From an uncultured virus (IMG/VR IMGVR_UViG_3300029305_003094) (Duplodnaviria > Heunggongvirae > Uroviricota > Caudoviricetes), in IMG/VR virus record IMGVR_UViG_3300029305_003094: a stretch of DNA of 64,000 bases, one strand, 5' to 3'. The position numbers and the translations under genes are program-made. How positions within the stretch are numbered: the stretch's first letter is position 1; the number at the start of each line of letters is the position of its first letter. This document shows, in pieces, positions 1-48,476 of the stretch. Below the pieces are notes generated by a model that worked only from the letters and a program-made list of their open reading frames with translations, had not been told where the DNA came from and did no database searches.

Positions 1-34
1 CACCTTCCGAGTAATTTCCCGGAAAGTGGCGTTT

Positions 35-1702
35 TTACCCATATTTAGGGTAAATCCCAGTATAATAATAAAAAAAGTCCACGCCAACTCTATCAAAGTT
101 AGCGTGGACATATGGTACACCGGAAGCGGTACCCACAGTATTTGTCACTGGGGAGTCGGTTCCGGTGGCGGCCAATGGGTAAATAAGCGGAGAAATGGAT
201 ACACCGGTGGCGGTGTAGTCGATTTCACCGGATGGGTCTGTGTCGAAAATGGTCCAAATGGTGATCTCGTTTATTCCGACTTCCACACGAGAAACGATGG
301 AAAGCAGGGCAGAGGCGTCTTCATTTGAAGAAACGATGTGATCAATGATGCCGCCAAGCAGTTCATCCGGGATCATGGAGCCGTCAACGCTGGACTTCAG
401 GGACTTTGCTTGAGCGTCCAGCGCGGTTTTTTTGTTTTCCAGCTCTCGCACCTTGGAAAGCAAAGTCGGACTGGAGAGGCCTGCCAGAATGGCGTCGGTG
501 GCGTTCTCCAACTTCTTTTCAACATCCCTACGCTCCACGATAATAGCCTGCAAAGTTGTGGCGGCGCCGGCGTGGATACGGGCGCGTTCTTCCTGCAGAA
601 TCCTGATCAAGTTTTTCCGATTTTCCGGTGGGGTTAGAACTTGGCGCACGGAATCGACCACAACACTTTCCAATTCGTTTGCGGAAATTGGTGAGGAAAT
701 GCAGGTATGCTTCCGCTTCTTGCCGGAGCATTTGTAATAATCGTACTTCATCTTTGAAGTGGAAATGATCATGGCGCTCTTGCATTCCGCACAGAACACC
801 TTTCCTTTTAACGGGTAGTCCCTTTTCTGCGCCGGCCGGCCACCCTGTTGGCGCTTGTTTGCGGCCATTTTTTCTTGAACCTTTTGGAAGAGCTCCTTGC
901 TGACGATGGGTGGAATTGCGTCTTCAATCCTAATGACGTTGGCCCCGTCTTTCTTGTGGGTGTTCCGGGAACCGTCCTCACGATATGGGGAGGCGCCGTA
1001 GGTCAGGACGCCGATATACTTTTCGTTACGGAGCAGATCGTGGAGGCTGTTTGCGCCAAAGGCACTTCCACGCTTTGTTTTTAGACAGTCACGGTTGAGC
1101 CCTTCGATAATTTGCCGGTAGGAATAACCGCCGGCATATTCCTGAAAAATGCGGCGTACAATGGCGGCCTCGGCCTCACAAACGACGAGACGGCCGTTTT
1201 CTACCATGTAACCCAGTGCAGGTTTGCCACCGGTGTGCTGACCGTTGCGAGCCATGAACCGCATCTTCTCCACAGTCTTTTGCCGGCTTTGCAGCGCCCA
1301 AATCTGATTGAAGAGCGCCATGCTGCCTTCCGTAAGAAAATTGGTGGGGTCGCGTAGATCCTTGCCGATCATGGGCTGCGTGACAGAAACGACCTTTACC
1401 CCCAGGGCAGAGAGCTCGTCACGGAAGGCAAACCAAGCAGTCATTTTGCGGAACATACGGGACTGATCGTAGATCACGACGGTATCTGCAATGCCTTGGC
1501 GCAGCTGCATCATCATGTTTTCGTACTGCGGCCGTGAATCCTTCATACCGGAGGTGGCTTCATCGGAGAAGATGCCCAGAATCGGAATGTTATTTCGATG
1601 GCACCACTCGGTACACTTTTCCACCTGCACCTCGATGCTGTCAGGATTCTGATTGTCTGTGGAGTATCTGGCGTTGATAAACGCACCGGGTATCCGGTCC
1701 AT
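35..1702 (-). CDS. Large serine recombinase (phage integrase)
   Basis: ARYSTDNQ catalytic Ser motif, recombinase domain (GGKPALGY, LLRNEKYIG), Zn ribbon CAEC/YYKC, coiled coil; AAAGGAG RBS. Confidence 0.95.
   Translation of the reverse strand: MDRIPGAFINARYSTDNQNPDSIEVQVEKCTEWCHRNNIPILGIFSDEATSGMKDSRPQYENMMMQLRQGIADTVVIYDQSRMFRKMTAWFAFRDELSALGVKVVSVTQPMIGKDLRDPTNFLTEGSMALFNQIWALQSRQKTVEKMRFMARNGQHTGGKPALGYMVENGRLVVCEAEAAIVRRIFQEYAGGYSYRQIIEGLNRDCLKTKRGSAFGANSLHDLLRNEKYIGVLTYGASPYREDGSRNTHKKDGANVIRIEDAIPPIVSKELFQKVQEKMAANKRQQGGRPAQKRDYPLKGKVFCAECKSAMIISTSKMKYDYYKCSGKKRKHTCISSPISANELESVVVDSVRQVLTPPENRKNLIRILQEERARIHAGAATTLQAIIVERRDVEKKLENATDAILAGLSSPTLLSKVRELENKKTALDAQAKSLKSSVDGSMIPDELLGGIIDHIVSSNEDASALLSIVSRVEVGINEITIWTIFDTDPSGEIDYTATGVSISPLIYPLAATGTDSPVTNTVGTASGVPYVHANFDRVGVDFFYYYTGIYPKYG
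70..109 (-). terminator. Intrinsic terminator, originally downstream of host tRNA-Arg
   Basis: 13-bp stem GTCCACGCTAACT/AGTTGGCGTGGAC (one G-U) followed by U7 on - strand, 3 nt after the CCA of the duplicated core. Confidence 0.85.
113..150. repeat. Left attachment junction: core 113-126 plus attP arm 129-150
   Basis: Core identical to the tRNA-Arg 3' end; 129-150 is a 19/22 inverted copy of 31568-31589. Confidence 0.92.
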
Positions 1703-2918: not shown

Positions 2919-3299
2919 TCACTTCTTTTTTAGGTTATCGGCGTATTTGCGTGTAATGTCGGCCACCAGCGGCCAAAACTCCGGAGGGAGATCTGCCAGT
3001 GCAGCGATGAATGCGCTGCGCTCATCCGGGGCAGTGGCCAGAACATCAGAAAAGAAGTTCTGCAGCTTGTCGCGCTGGGAGTCGGCAATCTGCATCTCCC
3101 CTTCGCCGGTGCGCAGCCACTGTTCATTGATGCGGAACTGTTCACAGACGGCGCCAATGATTTCGTCCCGTGGAATTACTTTATCGTAAATGATGTTTGC
3201 GACCTCTCCACGGCTTCGCTTGATCCTTTTAGCAAACTTTTCTTGGGATAAGCCTGTGTGATCGAGGACTTGCCGAAAACGTGCGTTGATTTGGTACAT
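2919..3299 (-). CDS. XRE-family HTH phage repressor (CI-like, no peptidase domain)
   Basis: GLSQEKFAKRI...INEQWLRTGEGEM signature; GGAGGTG RBS before ATG at 3299. Confidence 0.88.
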   Translation of the reverse strand: MYQINARFRQVLDHTGLSQEKFAKRIKRSRGEVANIIYDKVIPRDEIIGAVCEQFRINEQWLRTGEGEMQIADSQRDKLQNFFSDVLATAPDERSAFIAALADLPPEFWPLVADITRKYADNLKKK

Positions 3300-3321
3300 T
3301 GTTGCACACCTCCATGGCTGC

Positions 3322-3350
3322 ATTCTACAACATTGGGCTTGTTGTGTCAA
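3322..3350 (-). promoter_or_regulatory. Leftward (lysogenic) sigma-A promoter
   Basis: TTGACA-17 nt-TAGAAT on - strand. Confidence 0.8.
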
Positions 3351-3383
3351 GACAAAAAATAGAAAAAATAACGAAATCATGTA

Positions 3384-4502: not shown

Positions 4503-4579
4503 GGACCCGTAGCTCAGAGGGTTAGAGCAGCGGACTCATAATCCGACGGTCTTCGGTTCAAGCCCGAACGGGGCCACCA
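4503..4579 (+). tRNA. Phage tRNA with CAT anticodon (Ile2-like; Met not excluded)
   Basis: Cloverleaf, CTCATAA loop, GGTTCAAGCCC T arm, encoded CCA; A3-G70 and G27-A43 mismatches. Confidence 0.85.
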
Positions 4580-19276: not shown

Positions 19277-19352
19277 GCCATCATAGCTCAGCTGGAAGAG
19301 CAGCTGCTTTGTAATCAGCAGGTCGGCGGTTCGAATCCGTCTGGTGGCTCCA
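19277..19352 (+). tRNA. Phage tRNA-Thr(TGT)
   Basis: Cloverleaf GCCATCA/TGGTGGC, TTTGTAA loop, GGTTCGAATCC, CCA; C31-U39 mismatch. Confidence 0.9.
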
Positions 19353-30288: not shown

Positions 30289-30942
30289 ATGAGCTACAGT
30301 AATTTGGTAAGCTATGTGCAGGAGAGCCCCAACAAAAGCGTCCGCAAGAATGCAACCTACAACCCCAAGGGTGAGGTATGGGTCATTGTGCCCCACCATG
30401 TGGCTGGTGTTACGGATGTGGAGGATCTGGGAGCGTTGTTCGCAAACCCGGCCCGGCAGGCAAGCAGCAATTACGGCATCGGCAATGACGGCCGCATTGC
30501 CTGCTTTGCGCCGGAGGAGTACCGCAGCTGGTGCACCGGAAGCAGAGAGGTGGACTACAAGGCAATTACCATCGAGGTCTCCAACAGCGCCGGTGCGCCG
30601 GACTGGCCGGTCAGCGATGCCGCCTACGAGTCTCTGATCAAACTTTGCGTGGATATCTGCAAGCGACACAATTTCCGCCTGAACTATACCGGAGATAAGA
30701 CCGGTAACCTGCAGATGCACAAATGGTATCAGGCCACCGGCTGCCCCGGCCCTTATCTGGAGGCACGCTTCCCGGAGATCGCCGCGGAGGTCAACCGCCG
30801 GCTGGATGCCGACGGAAAGAAGGATGTATTCTACCGGGTGCAATGTGGTGCTTTCAACAGCCATGACAATGCGGTTCGCTTCCGGGATGAGCTGCGTGCG
30901 AAGGGATATAGTGACGCCTTCATTGTGCAGGTGGAAAAATAA
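30289..30942 (+). CDS. Endolysin: amidase_2 plus SPOR-like binding domain
   Basis: PHHVAG, ASSNYGIG, ITIEV, HKW...TGCPG; YRVQCGAF. Confidence 0.9.
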   Translation: MSYSNLVSYVQESPNKSVRKNATYNPKGEVWVIVPHHVAGVTDVEDLGALFANPARQASSNYGIGNDGRIACFAPEEYRSWCTGSREVDYKAITIEVSNSAGAPDWPVSDAAYESLIKLCVDICKRHNFRLNYTGDKTGNLQMHKWYQATGCPGPYLEARFPEIAAEVNRRLDADGKKDVFYRVQCGAFNSHDNAVRFRDELRAKGYSDAFIVQVEK

Positions 30943-30961
30943 GAAACTGGAGGAAAGAAAA

Positions 30962-31504
30962 ATGCAGGAAAATATGATGACTTTTAAGGCTGCTGTGGCA
31001 GCGTTCTTTACGGCGGCTGGAGCTCTCTTGGGCTGGCAAGGTGTGATGATCGCCGTGTGGGTAGGTATGATGCTGCTGGATTATTTGTCGGGTACTTTCG
31101 CGGCAATGAAAAGCGGCGAGTGGTGTAGTGCCACAGCTAGGCAGGGTCTCTGGCATAAGGGTGGTATGATCGTGGTGGTGGTCGTGGCAGGCATTGCGGA
31201 CCTTGTTATGAGCATCATCTGCCAGCACATCCCCTTAGATATGACGTGGCCGGTGCTGATTCTTCCGCTGGTGCTTGCGTGGTACATATTGACGGAGATG
31301 GGCAGCATCCTTGAAAATGCGGTGAAGATGGGCGCCCCGATTCCGGAATGGCTCATAAAGGTTCTGAAGGTCGGTGTAAATATTATTGATCGCAAAGGTG
31401 ATAAGCTGAAGGATCAGCTTTCTGCTGGCGGAGTTGAAGCGGAAGAGCATTCGCAAGATACAGTAGAACCCGAACAGAATAGCGATAAGAATGTCGCAGA
31501 ATAA
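30962..31504 (+). CDS. Holin (phage holin family 4)
   Basis: LDYLSG...S..ARQGL.HK...EMGSILEN..KMG.PIP.WL. Confidence 0.9.
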   Translation: MQENMMTFKAAVAAFFTAAGALLGWQGVMIAVWVGMMLLDYLSGTFAAMKSGEWCSATARQGLWHKGGMIVVVVVAGIADLVMSIICQHIPLDMTWPVLILPLVLAWYILTEMGSILENAVKMGAPIPEWLIKVLKVGVNIIDRKGDKLKDQLSAGGVEAEEHSQDTVEPEQNSDKNVAE

Positions 31505-31540
31505 AGAAAAAGACGCCTCTTTACAGAGGCGTCTTTTTTC
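31505..31540. terminator. Bidirectional intrinsic terminator
   Basis: AAAAAGACGCCTCT-TTAC-AGAGGCGTCTTTTTT. Confidence 0.88.
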
Positions 31541-31567
31541 TTGGCACAACGATCTTCAAAGCTGAAG

Positions 31568-31597
31568 CAGTGACAAAAACTCTTGGTACACCGGAAG
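31568..31597. repeat. Right attachment junction: attP arm 31568-31589 plus core 31584-31597
   Basis: CAGTGACAAAAACTCTTGGTAC is a 19/22 inverted copy of 129-150. Confidence 0.92.
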
Positions 31598-31659
31598 GGA
31601 CTCGAACCCCCAACCCTCGGAACCGGAATCCGATGCTCTATCCATTGAGCCACCGGTGC
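31584..31659 (-). tRNA. Host tRNA-Arg(CCG), reconstituted by prophage 1
   Basis: Cloverleaf, TTCCGGT loop, CCA; TTTACA-16-TATAAT promoter at 31698-31671. Confidence 0.95.
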
Positions 31660-33868: not shown

Positions 33869-33944
<76 letters not shown>

Positions 33945-34060: not shown

Positions 34061-34171
34061 AGCATGGAATCTGCCAAGTTGGGTGGACACAGGGCATCAA
34101 AAGTTGGTTGGCATGATTCTTGCTAGTGTTTCCGCAAATGACGGAAGAAAAAGTTGGCATGATTCTTGCTA
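34061..34171. repeat. Three sigma-54-like (-24/-12) boxes
   Basis: GTTGGCATGATTCTTGCTA at 34107-34125 and 34153-34171; inverted TTGGCAGATTCCATGCT at 34077-34061. Confidence 0.65.
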
Positions 34172-47630: not shown

Positions 47631-48476
47631 TTACTTCGTCAGTTTGGCAAGCCGTGCTTCAAATGCGGAATAATCGATGGAACGGCTTTCCTGTTCCTCG
47701 GTTTCTTCCTCGGTCTGCTCGGCTTCGGCATCCTCTGCCTTTTCCTCGGTCTGCTCCTCGGCATCCTCGGCTTCGGTTTCTTCAGTTTCCTCTTGCGTTT
47801 CCGCTTCGGTTTCTTCAGTTACCTCGGTTTCCTCTTCAGTTTCCTCTGCCTTTTGCTCGGTCTTTAGTGCTTCAATCACTTTAGCTGCGACCAACTCAGC
47901 CAACTCCTCAATGCTGATGGTAGGCTGTTCGGTCTGCTCGGTTTCAGCGGTCTGCTCCTGTTCAAAGGCATCTGCTCGAATTTCCTTCATTCTTGCACCC
48001 CCTTCCCTTGTTTCGATACTAGTACCATAATAGGCTGGTGCTTTGGTGTCATCCAAGATGGACACCTCATGCAGATCCAAGTCTGTCACGGTTCTAATTT
48101 CGTCATTGCCTTCGGTGGTGATAACATCATCGTTGGCAATGAACCCAAAACTCCAACCAGACAGCTTGCCGTCCCTTGCTTTCTGCACAACCTCTTTGTC
48201 CGTGATGGTGATTTCGGCTCTCAAGCCAATGTTGTCTTCCTCAAGCACGGCACTTCCGTCTTCGGTGGATGCAAGAACCCTGTTTTCATCGTGGTTCAGC
48301 AACACAAGCACATTGCTATTCTTCTTCAGGGCATTGCGGAACACTCCAGCCTTGATGCGTTCGAGAAAAGTCCTGACCCTTCCGTGCAATGTTTCACGGA
48401 TAGGCTTGGACAATCTCTCAACTGCGTTCACATATCCATGAATGAATACACTATCGTTTCTTATCTCTACTCGCAT
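47631..48476 (-). CDS. Prohead protease (HK97 type) with acidic C-terminal tail
   Basis: LLNH, GWSFGF, LHEVSI...PAY; Glu/Thr-rich tail. Confidence 0.9.
   Translation of the reverse strand: MRVEIRNDSVFIHGYVNAVERLSKPIRETLHGRVRTFLERIKAGVFRNALKKNSNVLVLLNHDENRVLASTEDGSAVLEEDNIGLRAEITITDKEVVQKARDGKLSGWSFGFIANDDVITTEGNDEIRTVTDLDLHEVSILDDTKAPAYYGTSIETREGGARMKEIRADAFEQEQTAETEQTEQPTISIEELAELVAAKVIEALKTEQKAEETEEETEVTEETEAETQEETEETEAEDAEEQTEEKAEDAEAEQTEEETEEQESRSIDYSAFEARLAKLTK

Follow-up and report, generated by a model that had tools for sequence, protein, structure and literature searches.

A phage attachment site inside the gene for a large serine integrase, and a conserved C-terminal tail that integration exchanges for host-encoded codons

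We analyzed a 64,000-nucleotide stretch of DNA from an uncultured virus of the Caudoviricetes (IMG/VR record IMGVR_UViG_3300029305_003094; hereafter the window), in which a siphovirus-type prophage of 31.5 kb occupies positions 113-31597 and carries its integrase gene, int, at one end, reading outward. The phage attachment site (attP) of this element lies within int. In the free circular phage the gene encodes an enzyme of 550 amino acids (aa) with a conserved C-terminal tail and a stop codon inside a phage terminator. Recombination at the attachment core carries the last 20 codons, the stop codon and the terminator 31.5 kb away, and int in the lysogen runs into host DNA, with 25 unrelated codons and a transfer RNA (tRNA) terminator ahead of the first stop codon. 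The layout recurs throughout a family of related phages, and we consider it about an even chance, judging from sequence comparisons, that integration lowers or alters integrase function in the lysogen.

The prophage form of int is an open reading frame (ORF) of 555 aa on the minus strand (35-1702), in which residues 1-530 are encoded by the phage and residues 531-555 by the host. Its domains identify the product as a large serine recombinase. Pfam matches were found to Resolvase (PF00239) at residues 9-155 (E 3e-25), Recombinase (PF07508) at 176-281 and Zn_ribbon_recom (PF13408) at 297-353, and the PHROG match is phrog_95, integrase (E 1e-99). Only serine recombinase domains were matched, and none that would indicate tyrosine recombinase chemistry. 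R12, Y13 and S14, which form an R-Y-S motif, show no variation in alignments of 30 and of 76 homologues, and the position of S14 marks it as the probable nucleophile.

The ends of the prophage are defined by a 14-bp sequence, TGGTACACCGGAAG, present at 113-126 and at 31584-31597. The first copy is the attL core, which the int strand reads as (A)S G V P; the second, identical to it, is the attR core and forms the last 14 nt of a tRNA-Arg(CCG) gene on the minus strand (31584-31659). Between the two copies lies a complete set of temperate siphovirus modules, comprising a repressor-like helix-turn-helix (HTH) gene, replication genes, large terminase, portal, major head protein, tape measure, tail proteins, endolysin and a holin-like gene. 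The original prediction held that the int ORF reads through the core, that it continues for 25 host codons to a stop at 37-35, that a host tRNA terminator precedes this stop, and that joining the prophage ends places a TAA in the loop of a phage terminator. The coordinates and translations agree with it in all four respects. The 3' end of the ORF reads ...GTASGVP YVHANFDRVGVDFFYYYTGIYPKYG; the host-derived codons (YVHANF...PKYG) occupy 38-112 on the minus strand. Within them, and in the int frame, lies the intrinsic terminator of the host tRNA-Arg gene (70-109, minus strand), which consists of a hairpin at 109-77 (-23.5 kcal/mol, 15 pairs of which 7 are GC) followed by TTTTTTTATT, the T tract being at 76-70. 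The stop codon (35-37, minus strand) lies 33 nt beyond the end of the T tract, and the tract as a whole is at least 33 nt ahead of it.

The junction form of int was obtained by scripted joining of the two prophage ends. The resulting ORF is 550 aa long and ends RVFVTASALKIVVPRKKTPL. In the prophage these 20 codons are left as an orphan int tail at 31524-31583 on the minus strand, in frame with the core, and they are homologous to the conserved tails of 76 relatives described below. When compared with the C-terminus of P0002, the closest junction-form homologue (integrase 85% identical), the orphan tail matches at 15 of 20 positions, which places the split arrangement beyond chance. The TAA stop (31521-31523, minus strand) falls within a 4-nt hairpin loop, and a T tract follows the hairpin. 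This hairpin belongs to a bidirectional phage terminator at 31503-31542 (-27.0 kcal/mol on the minus strand, -25.7 on the plus strand) that ends the holin-like gene on the plus strand, junction-form int on the minus strand and, in the lysogen, the displaced tRNA-Arg transcript. Once the phage has integrated, the orphan tail codons and then the phage terminator lie on the 3' side of the tRNA-Arg gene (31521-31597), so that phage and tRNA have effectively swapped terminators.

The reconstructed attP spans about 56 bp, lies wholly within the int ORF (codons PVTNTVGTASGVPRVFVTA) and is situated some 20 codons before the natural stop. At its best dyad centre 20 of 28 positions are symmetric, against 13 at the runner-up, and the central crossover dinucleotide, predicted solely from this symmetry, is TC on the int strand at 123-124. 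The int-side half-site (125-152, minus strand; codons PVTNTVGTA) has the outer motif CAGTGACAAATACT at 150-137 and the inner motif GGTAC. The second half-site is formed by the first 18 nt of the orphan tail, with its outer motif at 31568-31581. Both arms bear the outer motif CAGTGACAAAWACT and the inner motif GGTAC. Two-motif att sites of about 50 bp have been described for the phiC31 and LI serine integrases, and the attP reconstructed here fits that pattern, being short and dyad-symmetric with its central dinucleotide inside the attP/attB identity.

These assignments could be undermined if the ends had been placed wrongly, that is, if the repeat were coincidental, the element had other bounds or another recombinase, and the read-through were an annotation artefact. 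We find this scarcely credible. The left host flank within the window measures 112 nt. Contigs of public faecal metagenome runs (X1-X4) cover this flank, and the unoccupied site (attB) was found in two contigs of X2 and one of X4. These contigs join window positions 70-126 directly to the tRNA body; they break exactly at 126, after which they carry 14 letters identical to tRNA body positions 31598-31611. The homology of the orphan tail to the tails of 76 relatives, the fall of the attP dyad centre inside the core and a replicate of the same split in another genome bin (L022/L119, below) likewise argue against misplaced ends. So does a different phage on the same flank: the L008 locus has the same host flank behind another integrase (63% identical), and a loose end in X1 at position 133 encodes the C-terminus of a related integrase, so that related phages contest one attB in a single host lineage. 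Nor is there another candidate recombinase, for we found no second resolvase or other integrase-type gene among 30 scanned prophage ORFs, including the int neighbours at 1776-2408 and 2919-3380. What speaks for misplaced ends is that a search of 301 genomes from the G003 family with window positions 1-112 turned up no closely related genome whose site was empty. Mean word depth was about 57-63 for flank contigs in X1-X3 and about 5-6.5 for int contigs. Word depths should not be read as proportions of cells; the difference agrees with carriage of the prophage by a minority of hosts in the population.

Seven hits among the 301 genomes were rejected as empty sites, because the match covers only the hairpin (query 61-112, about 80% identity) and lies downstream of other tRNA genes or has no tRNA gene near it. 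In these seven genomes (L123-L129) a tRNA-Ala, tRNA-Ser or tRNA-Leu gene adjoins the hairpin in six and none was found beside the hairpin of L127. The recurring hairpin appears, from its sequence and surroundings, to be a shared terminator motif.

Given this arrangement in a single prophage, the family to which its integrase belongs bears directly on whether the layout is particular to one element. Our family set consists of 119 homologues (63-85% identity) which, with the window's own protein, make 120; 108 were sorted by script and 12 by eye. The family is one of complete phages of gut Oscillospiraceae. A conserved junction-form tail of 15-21 aa, with the pattern x-V-F/I-V-T-x-x-F-I/V-R-I-x-V-A-R, is present in 76 of the 119, and unrelated tails of 2-91 aa are present in 35 (36 of 120 with the window's own). 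Six stop directly after the core and the remaining two are ambiguous in tail class. It would have told against the original prediction if homologues normally stopped before attP; none of the 117 classifiable homologues does so, and 117 of 119 have reading frames that enter or cross the core.

The split itself is replicated in L022, a locus 61% identical to the window's integrase in a Faecousia genome bin. There the integrase reads FPSGVP and then unrelated residues, and 35.6 kb away on the same contig a tRNA-Arg(CCG) gene is followed in frame by KVIVTAGFIRITVAR, a stop codon and a terminator. A genome search with a 9-nt pattern gave counts below those of its reversed control, and only its hits on integrase contigs were used. 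A second case has another target: the L027 integrase has the core SAPP, and its genome bin holds, on a separate contig (L122), the 3' end of a gene resembling that for transfer-messenger RNA (tmRNA) followed by IIFVTSDFLRIVVANKMPPG, giving the same split. In the subfamily with this core (...TCGGCTCCACCA; L027 at G006:C28, L122 at G006:C93:2200-2900) the site is tmRNA-like by eye and the conserved tail is on the tmRNA side. ARAGORN, run in tRNA mode only, found nothing at the L027/L122 site. We rejected L035/L120 (G005:C2:7175-21119) as a further replicate, since the core copy 13.9 kb away comprises a tmRNA-like 3' end followed by KRP and a stop codon, with host-like hairpins and no tail; this locus may be a tandem array or a decayed element.

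Among distant members (49-57% identical) with other cores, the C-terminus still consists of a hydrophobic strand, a turn, a second strand and basic residues. In another subfamily (L024, L026, L029, L030, L037, L046 and L052) the sequence G-T-P-E/K-G... comes from a tRNA-Arg core read antisense. Prophage forms of this subfamily run antisense through the whole tRNA, as in GTRTPNPRNRNPMLYPLSHRC, which is the antisense of the window's tRNA-Arg, and the junction form L049 continues with SPSIVITSSAIGILLP. The att core occupies the same protein loop in either orientation. Downstream of the tail in two junction-form contigs (L005 and L014), eight of nine ORFs had no PHROG match and one was HTH-like, and a join of the lysis module to int was not seen there.

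A conserved tail at an attachment site might reflect the DNA site, the protein, or both. We compared codons across nine junction-form loci by the NG86 method, the values below coming from non-independent pairs and without a tree. Synonymous divergence (pS) is 0.69 in the gene body, 0.33 in the left attP arm, 0.16 in the core and 0.25 in the right arm. The drop spans about 18 codons, which is the size of attP. Its extent across the core and both arms indicates constraint on attP at the level of DNA, which explains the conserved V-T ... V-F-V-T residues, and the codon alignment contains mirrored arm motifs (GTGACAATAACT and AGTTTTTGTCAC). In the 10 codons past attP, pS is 0.57 and the ratio of nonsynonymous to synonymous divergence (pN/pS) is 0.46 (0.38 in the last eight codons). 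The ratio is 0.49 in the preceding C-terminal region, and 89 ten-codon windows of the gene body have a median of 0.26 and a maximum of 0.65, with 10% at 0.46 or above. The arginine codons of the tail vary among CGG, CGA, CGT and AGG. The synonymous turnover, together with a pN/pS within the range of the body, indicates that the codons past attP evolve as coding sequence. Codon comparison thus shows the junction-side tail to be conserved and under purifying selection.

These results bear on a neutral explanation of the overlap, according to which a short attP, free to lie at any position, drifted into a dispensable int 3' end by genome compaction, both forms of the enzyme work alike, the tail is a minor structural decoration and the late stop, an accident of insertion beside tRNA terminators, plays no regulatory part. 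This is possible, and we would give it a minor share of our belief. It draws on the constraint of the attP arm (pS 0.25), which by itself explains the first five residues of the tail, and on the variable length of the tail (15-21 aa); moreover, a terminator directly after a tRNA gene makes a late stop likely by chance. It does not account well for the 10 codons past attP, which keep a protein pattern amid synonymous turnover, or for the persistence of the strand-turn-strand-basic pattern in subfamilies with other cores and targets. One would also expect a dispensable tail to degenerate or to be cut short by a premature stop codon, and the tail is kept in 76 of 119 homologues.

Structure prediction adds evidence on both sides of this question. 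In an AlphaFold2 model of P0002 (76-row alignment, mean predicted local distance difference test score (pLDDT) 74.6), long helices at residues 359-406 and 412-442 are followed, after the coiled coil, by strands at 470-475, 479-485, 501-504, 513-516 and 520-526, of which the last two are the tail and have a pLDDT of about 66-74. VIA-align gave the model Z scores of 12-16 to 9dxh, 9iu2, 9u2s and 4kis, including 15.9 for the SPbeta integrase and 13.5 for the LI integrase (4kis). The LI integrase aligns to model residues 140-485 (its own last residue is 452), and the phiC31, SPbeta and Bxb1 integrases align to about 486-522. The core loop and the tail are therefore predicted to belong to an extension past the canonical second DNA-binding domain. 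A sequence search of solved structures covered residues 54-313 only, leaving the C-terminal extension without a solved relative by sequence. The position of the swapped region outside the canonical fold is a further point for the neutral explanation, as is the disorder of the last 28 residues of the SPbeta integrase in the cryo-electron microscopy maps reported in PMC11722253.

The same model invites a more specific explanation, by analogy with characterized integrases, in which the tail is a directionality device. The tail would cover or shape the surface of the second DNA-binding domain that binds a directionality factor and the hinge of the coiled coil; the tailed enzyme would be limited to integration, and the tail-less enzyme would be opened to the factor or competent for attL x attR recombination. 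We think this quite unlikely. It is consistent with strands 513-516 and 520-526, which extend the domain beyond its canonical end at about 485. In addition, PMC12286644 raises the possibility that extra C-terminal beta strands in some large serine recombinases block the directionality-factor site and asks whether these recombinases solve directionality in another way, and F532 of SPbeta Int, near the C-terminus, is reported to matter for directionality and to be flanked by factor residues (PMC11722253). On the other side, no directionality factor was identified in the prophage, and the host replacement tails differ in every host, so that function could be gained only through loss of the tail. 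Directionality factors are not known to form a common family.

We then return to the 3' end of the message, for which the order of terminator and stop codon was surveyed heuristically in 34 junctions not of the junction type, using a strict terminator rule. A terminator was found in 19. The stop codon lies past the start of the T tract in 16 of these and before or inside the hairpin in two, and in one the ORF runs off the contig. As the window is L001 by sequence, 15 of the 18 distinct junctions that could be scored have the stop past the T tract. Three junctions had too little downstream DNA. In every prophage-form junction that we inspected, a hairpin and T tract begin within a few bases of the tRNA CCA. 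Since a terminator follows most tRNA genes, a late stop is expected from the geometry, yet it is systematic.

Given these features, the following sequence of events may be proposed. In the lysogen, int is perhaps transcribed with the repressor-like HTH gene (2919-3380, minus strand as int), which has a strong promoter-like site at 3350-3322. Such transcription is plausible because int is on the strand of the repressor-like gene and no terminator-like site lies between them; the sole terminator-like site on the minus strand between 4146 and 1 is the host hairpin at 109-77. Most int transcripts of the lysogen would then end without a stop codon at the tRNA terminator, and trans-translation would tag their product, and any read-through product would lack the conserved tail. 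Integration would in this way switch the enzyme from a full-strength form to an attenuated or altered one, with little of it made in the lysogen. Two observations favour attenuation, namely that the tail is conserved solely on the phage-junction side and that a terminator precedes the stop in 15 of the 18 scored distinct junctions. The family-wide layout makes it most likely that selection acts on the loss of the tail together with the gene's own 3' end. Insertion immediately ahead of a tRNA or tmRNA terminator would often, though not always, yield a non-stop message.

Several results weigh against attenuation as the explanation. By the strict rule, 12 of the 34 junctions have no terminator, L011 and L101 among them being misparsed. 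The six of 119 homologues that stop at the core mean that non-stop messages cannot be the universal mechanism. The original prediction was right in placing attP in int, in having the C-terminus replaced and in having a terminator before the stop, and this anatomy holds more widely than it foresaw; its proposal of a stable enzyme from the circular phage and a tagged one from the lysogen, with recombination as the throttle, may hold. The tail is under weaker constraint than the gene body (pN/pS 0.46 vs 0.28), this test being the one based on non-independent pairs, and its pLDDT in the model is 55-74. Because the swapped segment is outside the canonical fold, the catalytic and DNA-binding domains survive integration and the prophage form may stay fully active; indeed, it must support excision if the phages are viable. 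Finally, no attP-junction contig of this phage at position 113 was found in X1-X4, which is weak evidence since contigs drop rare forms.

Attenuation and the proposed role of the tail in directionality could also be combined. Under this proposal int would store one bit of information on the whereabouts of the phage DNA, the tailed form being proficient for integration and the lysogen enzyme being both scarce, by trans-translation, and opened for a factor or for attL x attR recombination, with the device conserved over tRNA-Arg, other tRNAs in either orientation and tmRNA targets. We put this forward tentatively and think it unlikely. If it is true, large serine integrases would have a solution to directionality that the substrate DNA itself encodes.

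The remaining features of the prophage and its surroundings are as follows. The holin-like gene, the last phage gene at the right end, is on the plus strand at 30806-31504 (phrog_199, E 9e-16). Between the repressor-like gene and int, an ORF on the minus strand (1776-2408) has an N-terminus resembling a signal peptide with a lipobox by eye and has no family match. The prophage carries genes for tRNA-Met(CAT) and tRNA-Thr(TGT) at 4503-4579 and 19277-19352, the second lying between head genes. A second, unrelated prophage on the minus strand extends from about 36.3 kb to past the window end, and the host gap between the two prophages is only about 2.3 kb. Its genes include those for a tail protein, Dit, tape measure, major head, protease, portal and large terminase, as well as an exonuclease, a DnaC-like loader, a radical SAM protein, an HNH protein and a methyltransferase. 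Its start adjoins a tRNA-Ala(GGC) gene (33869-33944), where the G+C content falls to about 46% and the GC skew flips. An exact 19-nt direct repeat is present at 34107 and 34153. Where the head protease and major head genes of the second prophage meet (47690-47865) there are dense direct repeats with a 12-nt period (families D1 and D3-D5), which on the coding strand would encode an acidic, Glu-rich repeat.

Large serine integrases are leading tools for the insertion of large DNA, and control of their directionality is an active structural question. A family that loses a C-terminal extension on integration offers a natural and direct test of what such extensions do. There are also consequences for annotation and enzyme mining. 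Of 119 database homologues, 35 have host-derived C-termini, 76 keep the conserved tail and six end at the core; since prophage copies carry host-derived ends, an enzyme cloned from a prophage would be chimeric. If the stop-less message is real, site-specific recombination would create a substrate for trans-translation, and the SAPP-core group is worth a look in this regard, as its serine integrase may rely on trans-translation while targeting the tmRNA gene.

Our search of the literature, with subscription journals and survey supplements mostly outside its coverage, found no description of attP inside the gene of a phage large serine integrase with a conserved junction-side tail. The principle of an int gene that spans attP is already known from Mx8, SSV and DsiB. 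The SSV-type integrases and mycobacteriophage repressors that the original prediction cited as precedents are indeed comparable, but it overlooked the closest ones, Mx8 IntP/IntX and Dehalococcoides DsiB. In Mx8, attP is within int and integration gives a recombinant gene with a new 3' end, the enzyme being reported as modified and not inactivated (PMC6070905). As in Mx8, the att core here is inside the int ORF and integration changes its 3' end, an arrangement that is replicated in L022/L119. Because the domains of the integrase are solely of the serine type, the system works like Mx8 while standing outside the Mx8 integrase family: Mx8 has a tyrosine recombinase with a long, arm-type attP, whereas here a serine recombinase has an attP of about 56 bp wholly in its ORF, only 20 residues past the canonical fold are swapped, and the layout is common to a family with several targets. 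Mx8 targets tRNA genes.

The integrase genes of SSV, like that of Mx8, are described as extending across attP (PMC4383910). SSV-type fuselloviruses resemble the present phages in having int span attP and in integrating into tRNA genes, and differ in that their enzymes are archaeal tyrosine recombinases. Integration of SSV divides int into two sizeable pieces, whereas here a short tail is trimmed. In the mycobacteriophage BPs and its relatives, attP is inside the repressor gene, and the viral and prophage proteins are reported to differ in their C-terminus and in stability through an ssrA-like tag (PMC4557955). Those phages rewrite the repressor gene, and the unstable protein is the viral one; here the integrase is rewritten and the repressor-like gene (2919-3380) is untouched, lying intact 2.8 kb from the att core. 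A stop-less message is also known from arfA, where it is repressed by trans-translation (PMC10107115). The prophage-form int message would resemble that of arfA if its transcripts end at 76-70, with the difference that the arfA truncation evolved in the gene and the one here would be made by recombination.

When compared with the canonical integrases of SPbeta (SprA), Bxb1, phiC31 and Listeria LI/A118, the enzymes of this family match in domain order, fold and short attP. Canonical large serine integrases are not known to have attP inside int, and their usual targets are protein-coding genes. Serine integrases are documented here at the 3' ends of tRNA and tmRNA genes, targets long linked to tyrosine integrases; as presented in the 2014 Islander paper, only tyrosine integrases were then known to target such genes (PMC4383910). 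The Dehalococcoides ssrA islands encode DsiB, a CcrB-like large serine recombinase that targets the 3' end of the tmRNA gene, and its own 3' end is described as always overlapping attL with the stop codon outside the island (PMC3146451). McMurdie et al. suggested that DsiB is fully functional perhaps only on the circular element (PMC3146451). The likeness to our phages, drawn by description, is that int has a 3' end overlapping attL and a stop codon outside the element, as a general rule across the family, and that one subfamily is at a tmRNA-like 3' end. Unlike the DsiB islands, which are mobilisable, have a second small serine recombinase (DsiA) and have an overlap reported to diverge, the elements described here are complete phages, with no second resolvase in the 30 ORFs and with a conserved tail. 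To what was known from these systems, the present family adds its large size, a conserved and selected junction-side tail, attP motifs that double as codons of the enzyme, targets at the 3' ends of tRNA and tmRNA genes, and a recurrent terminator before the stop codon.

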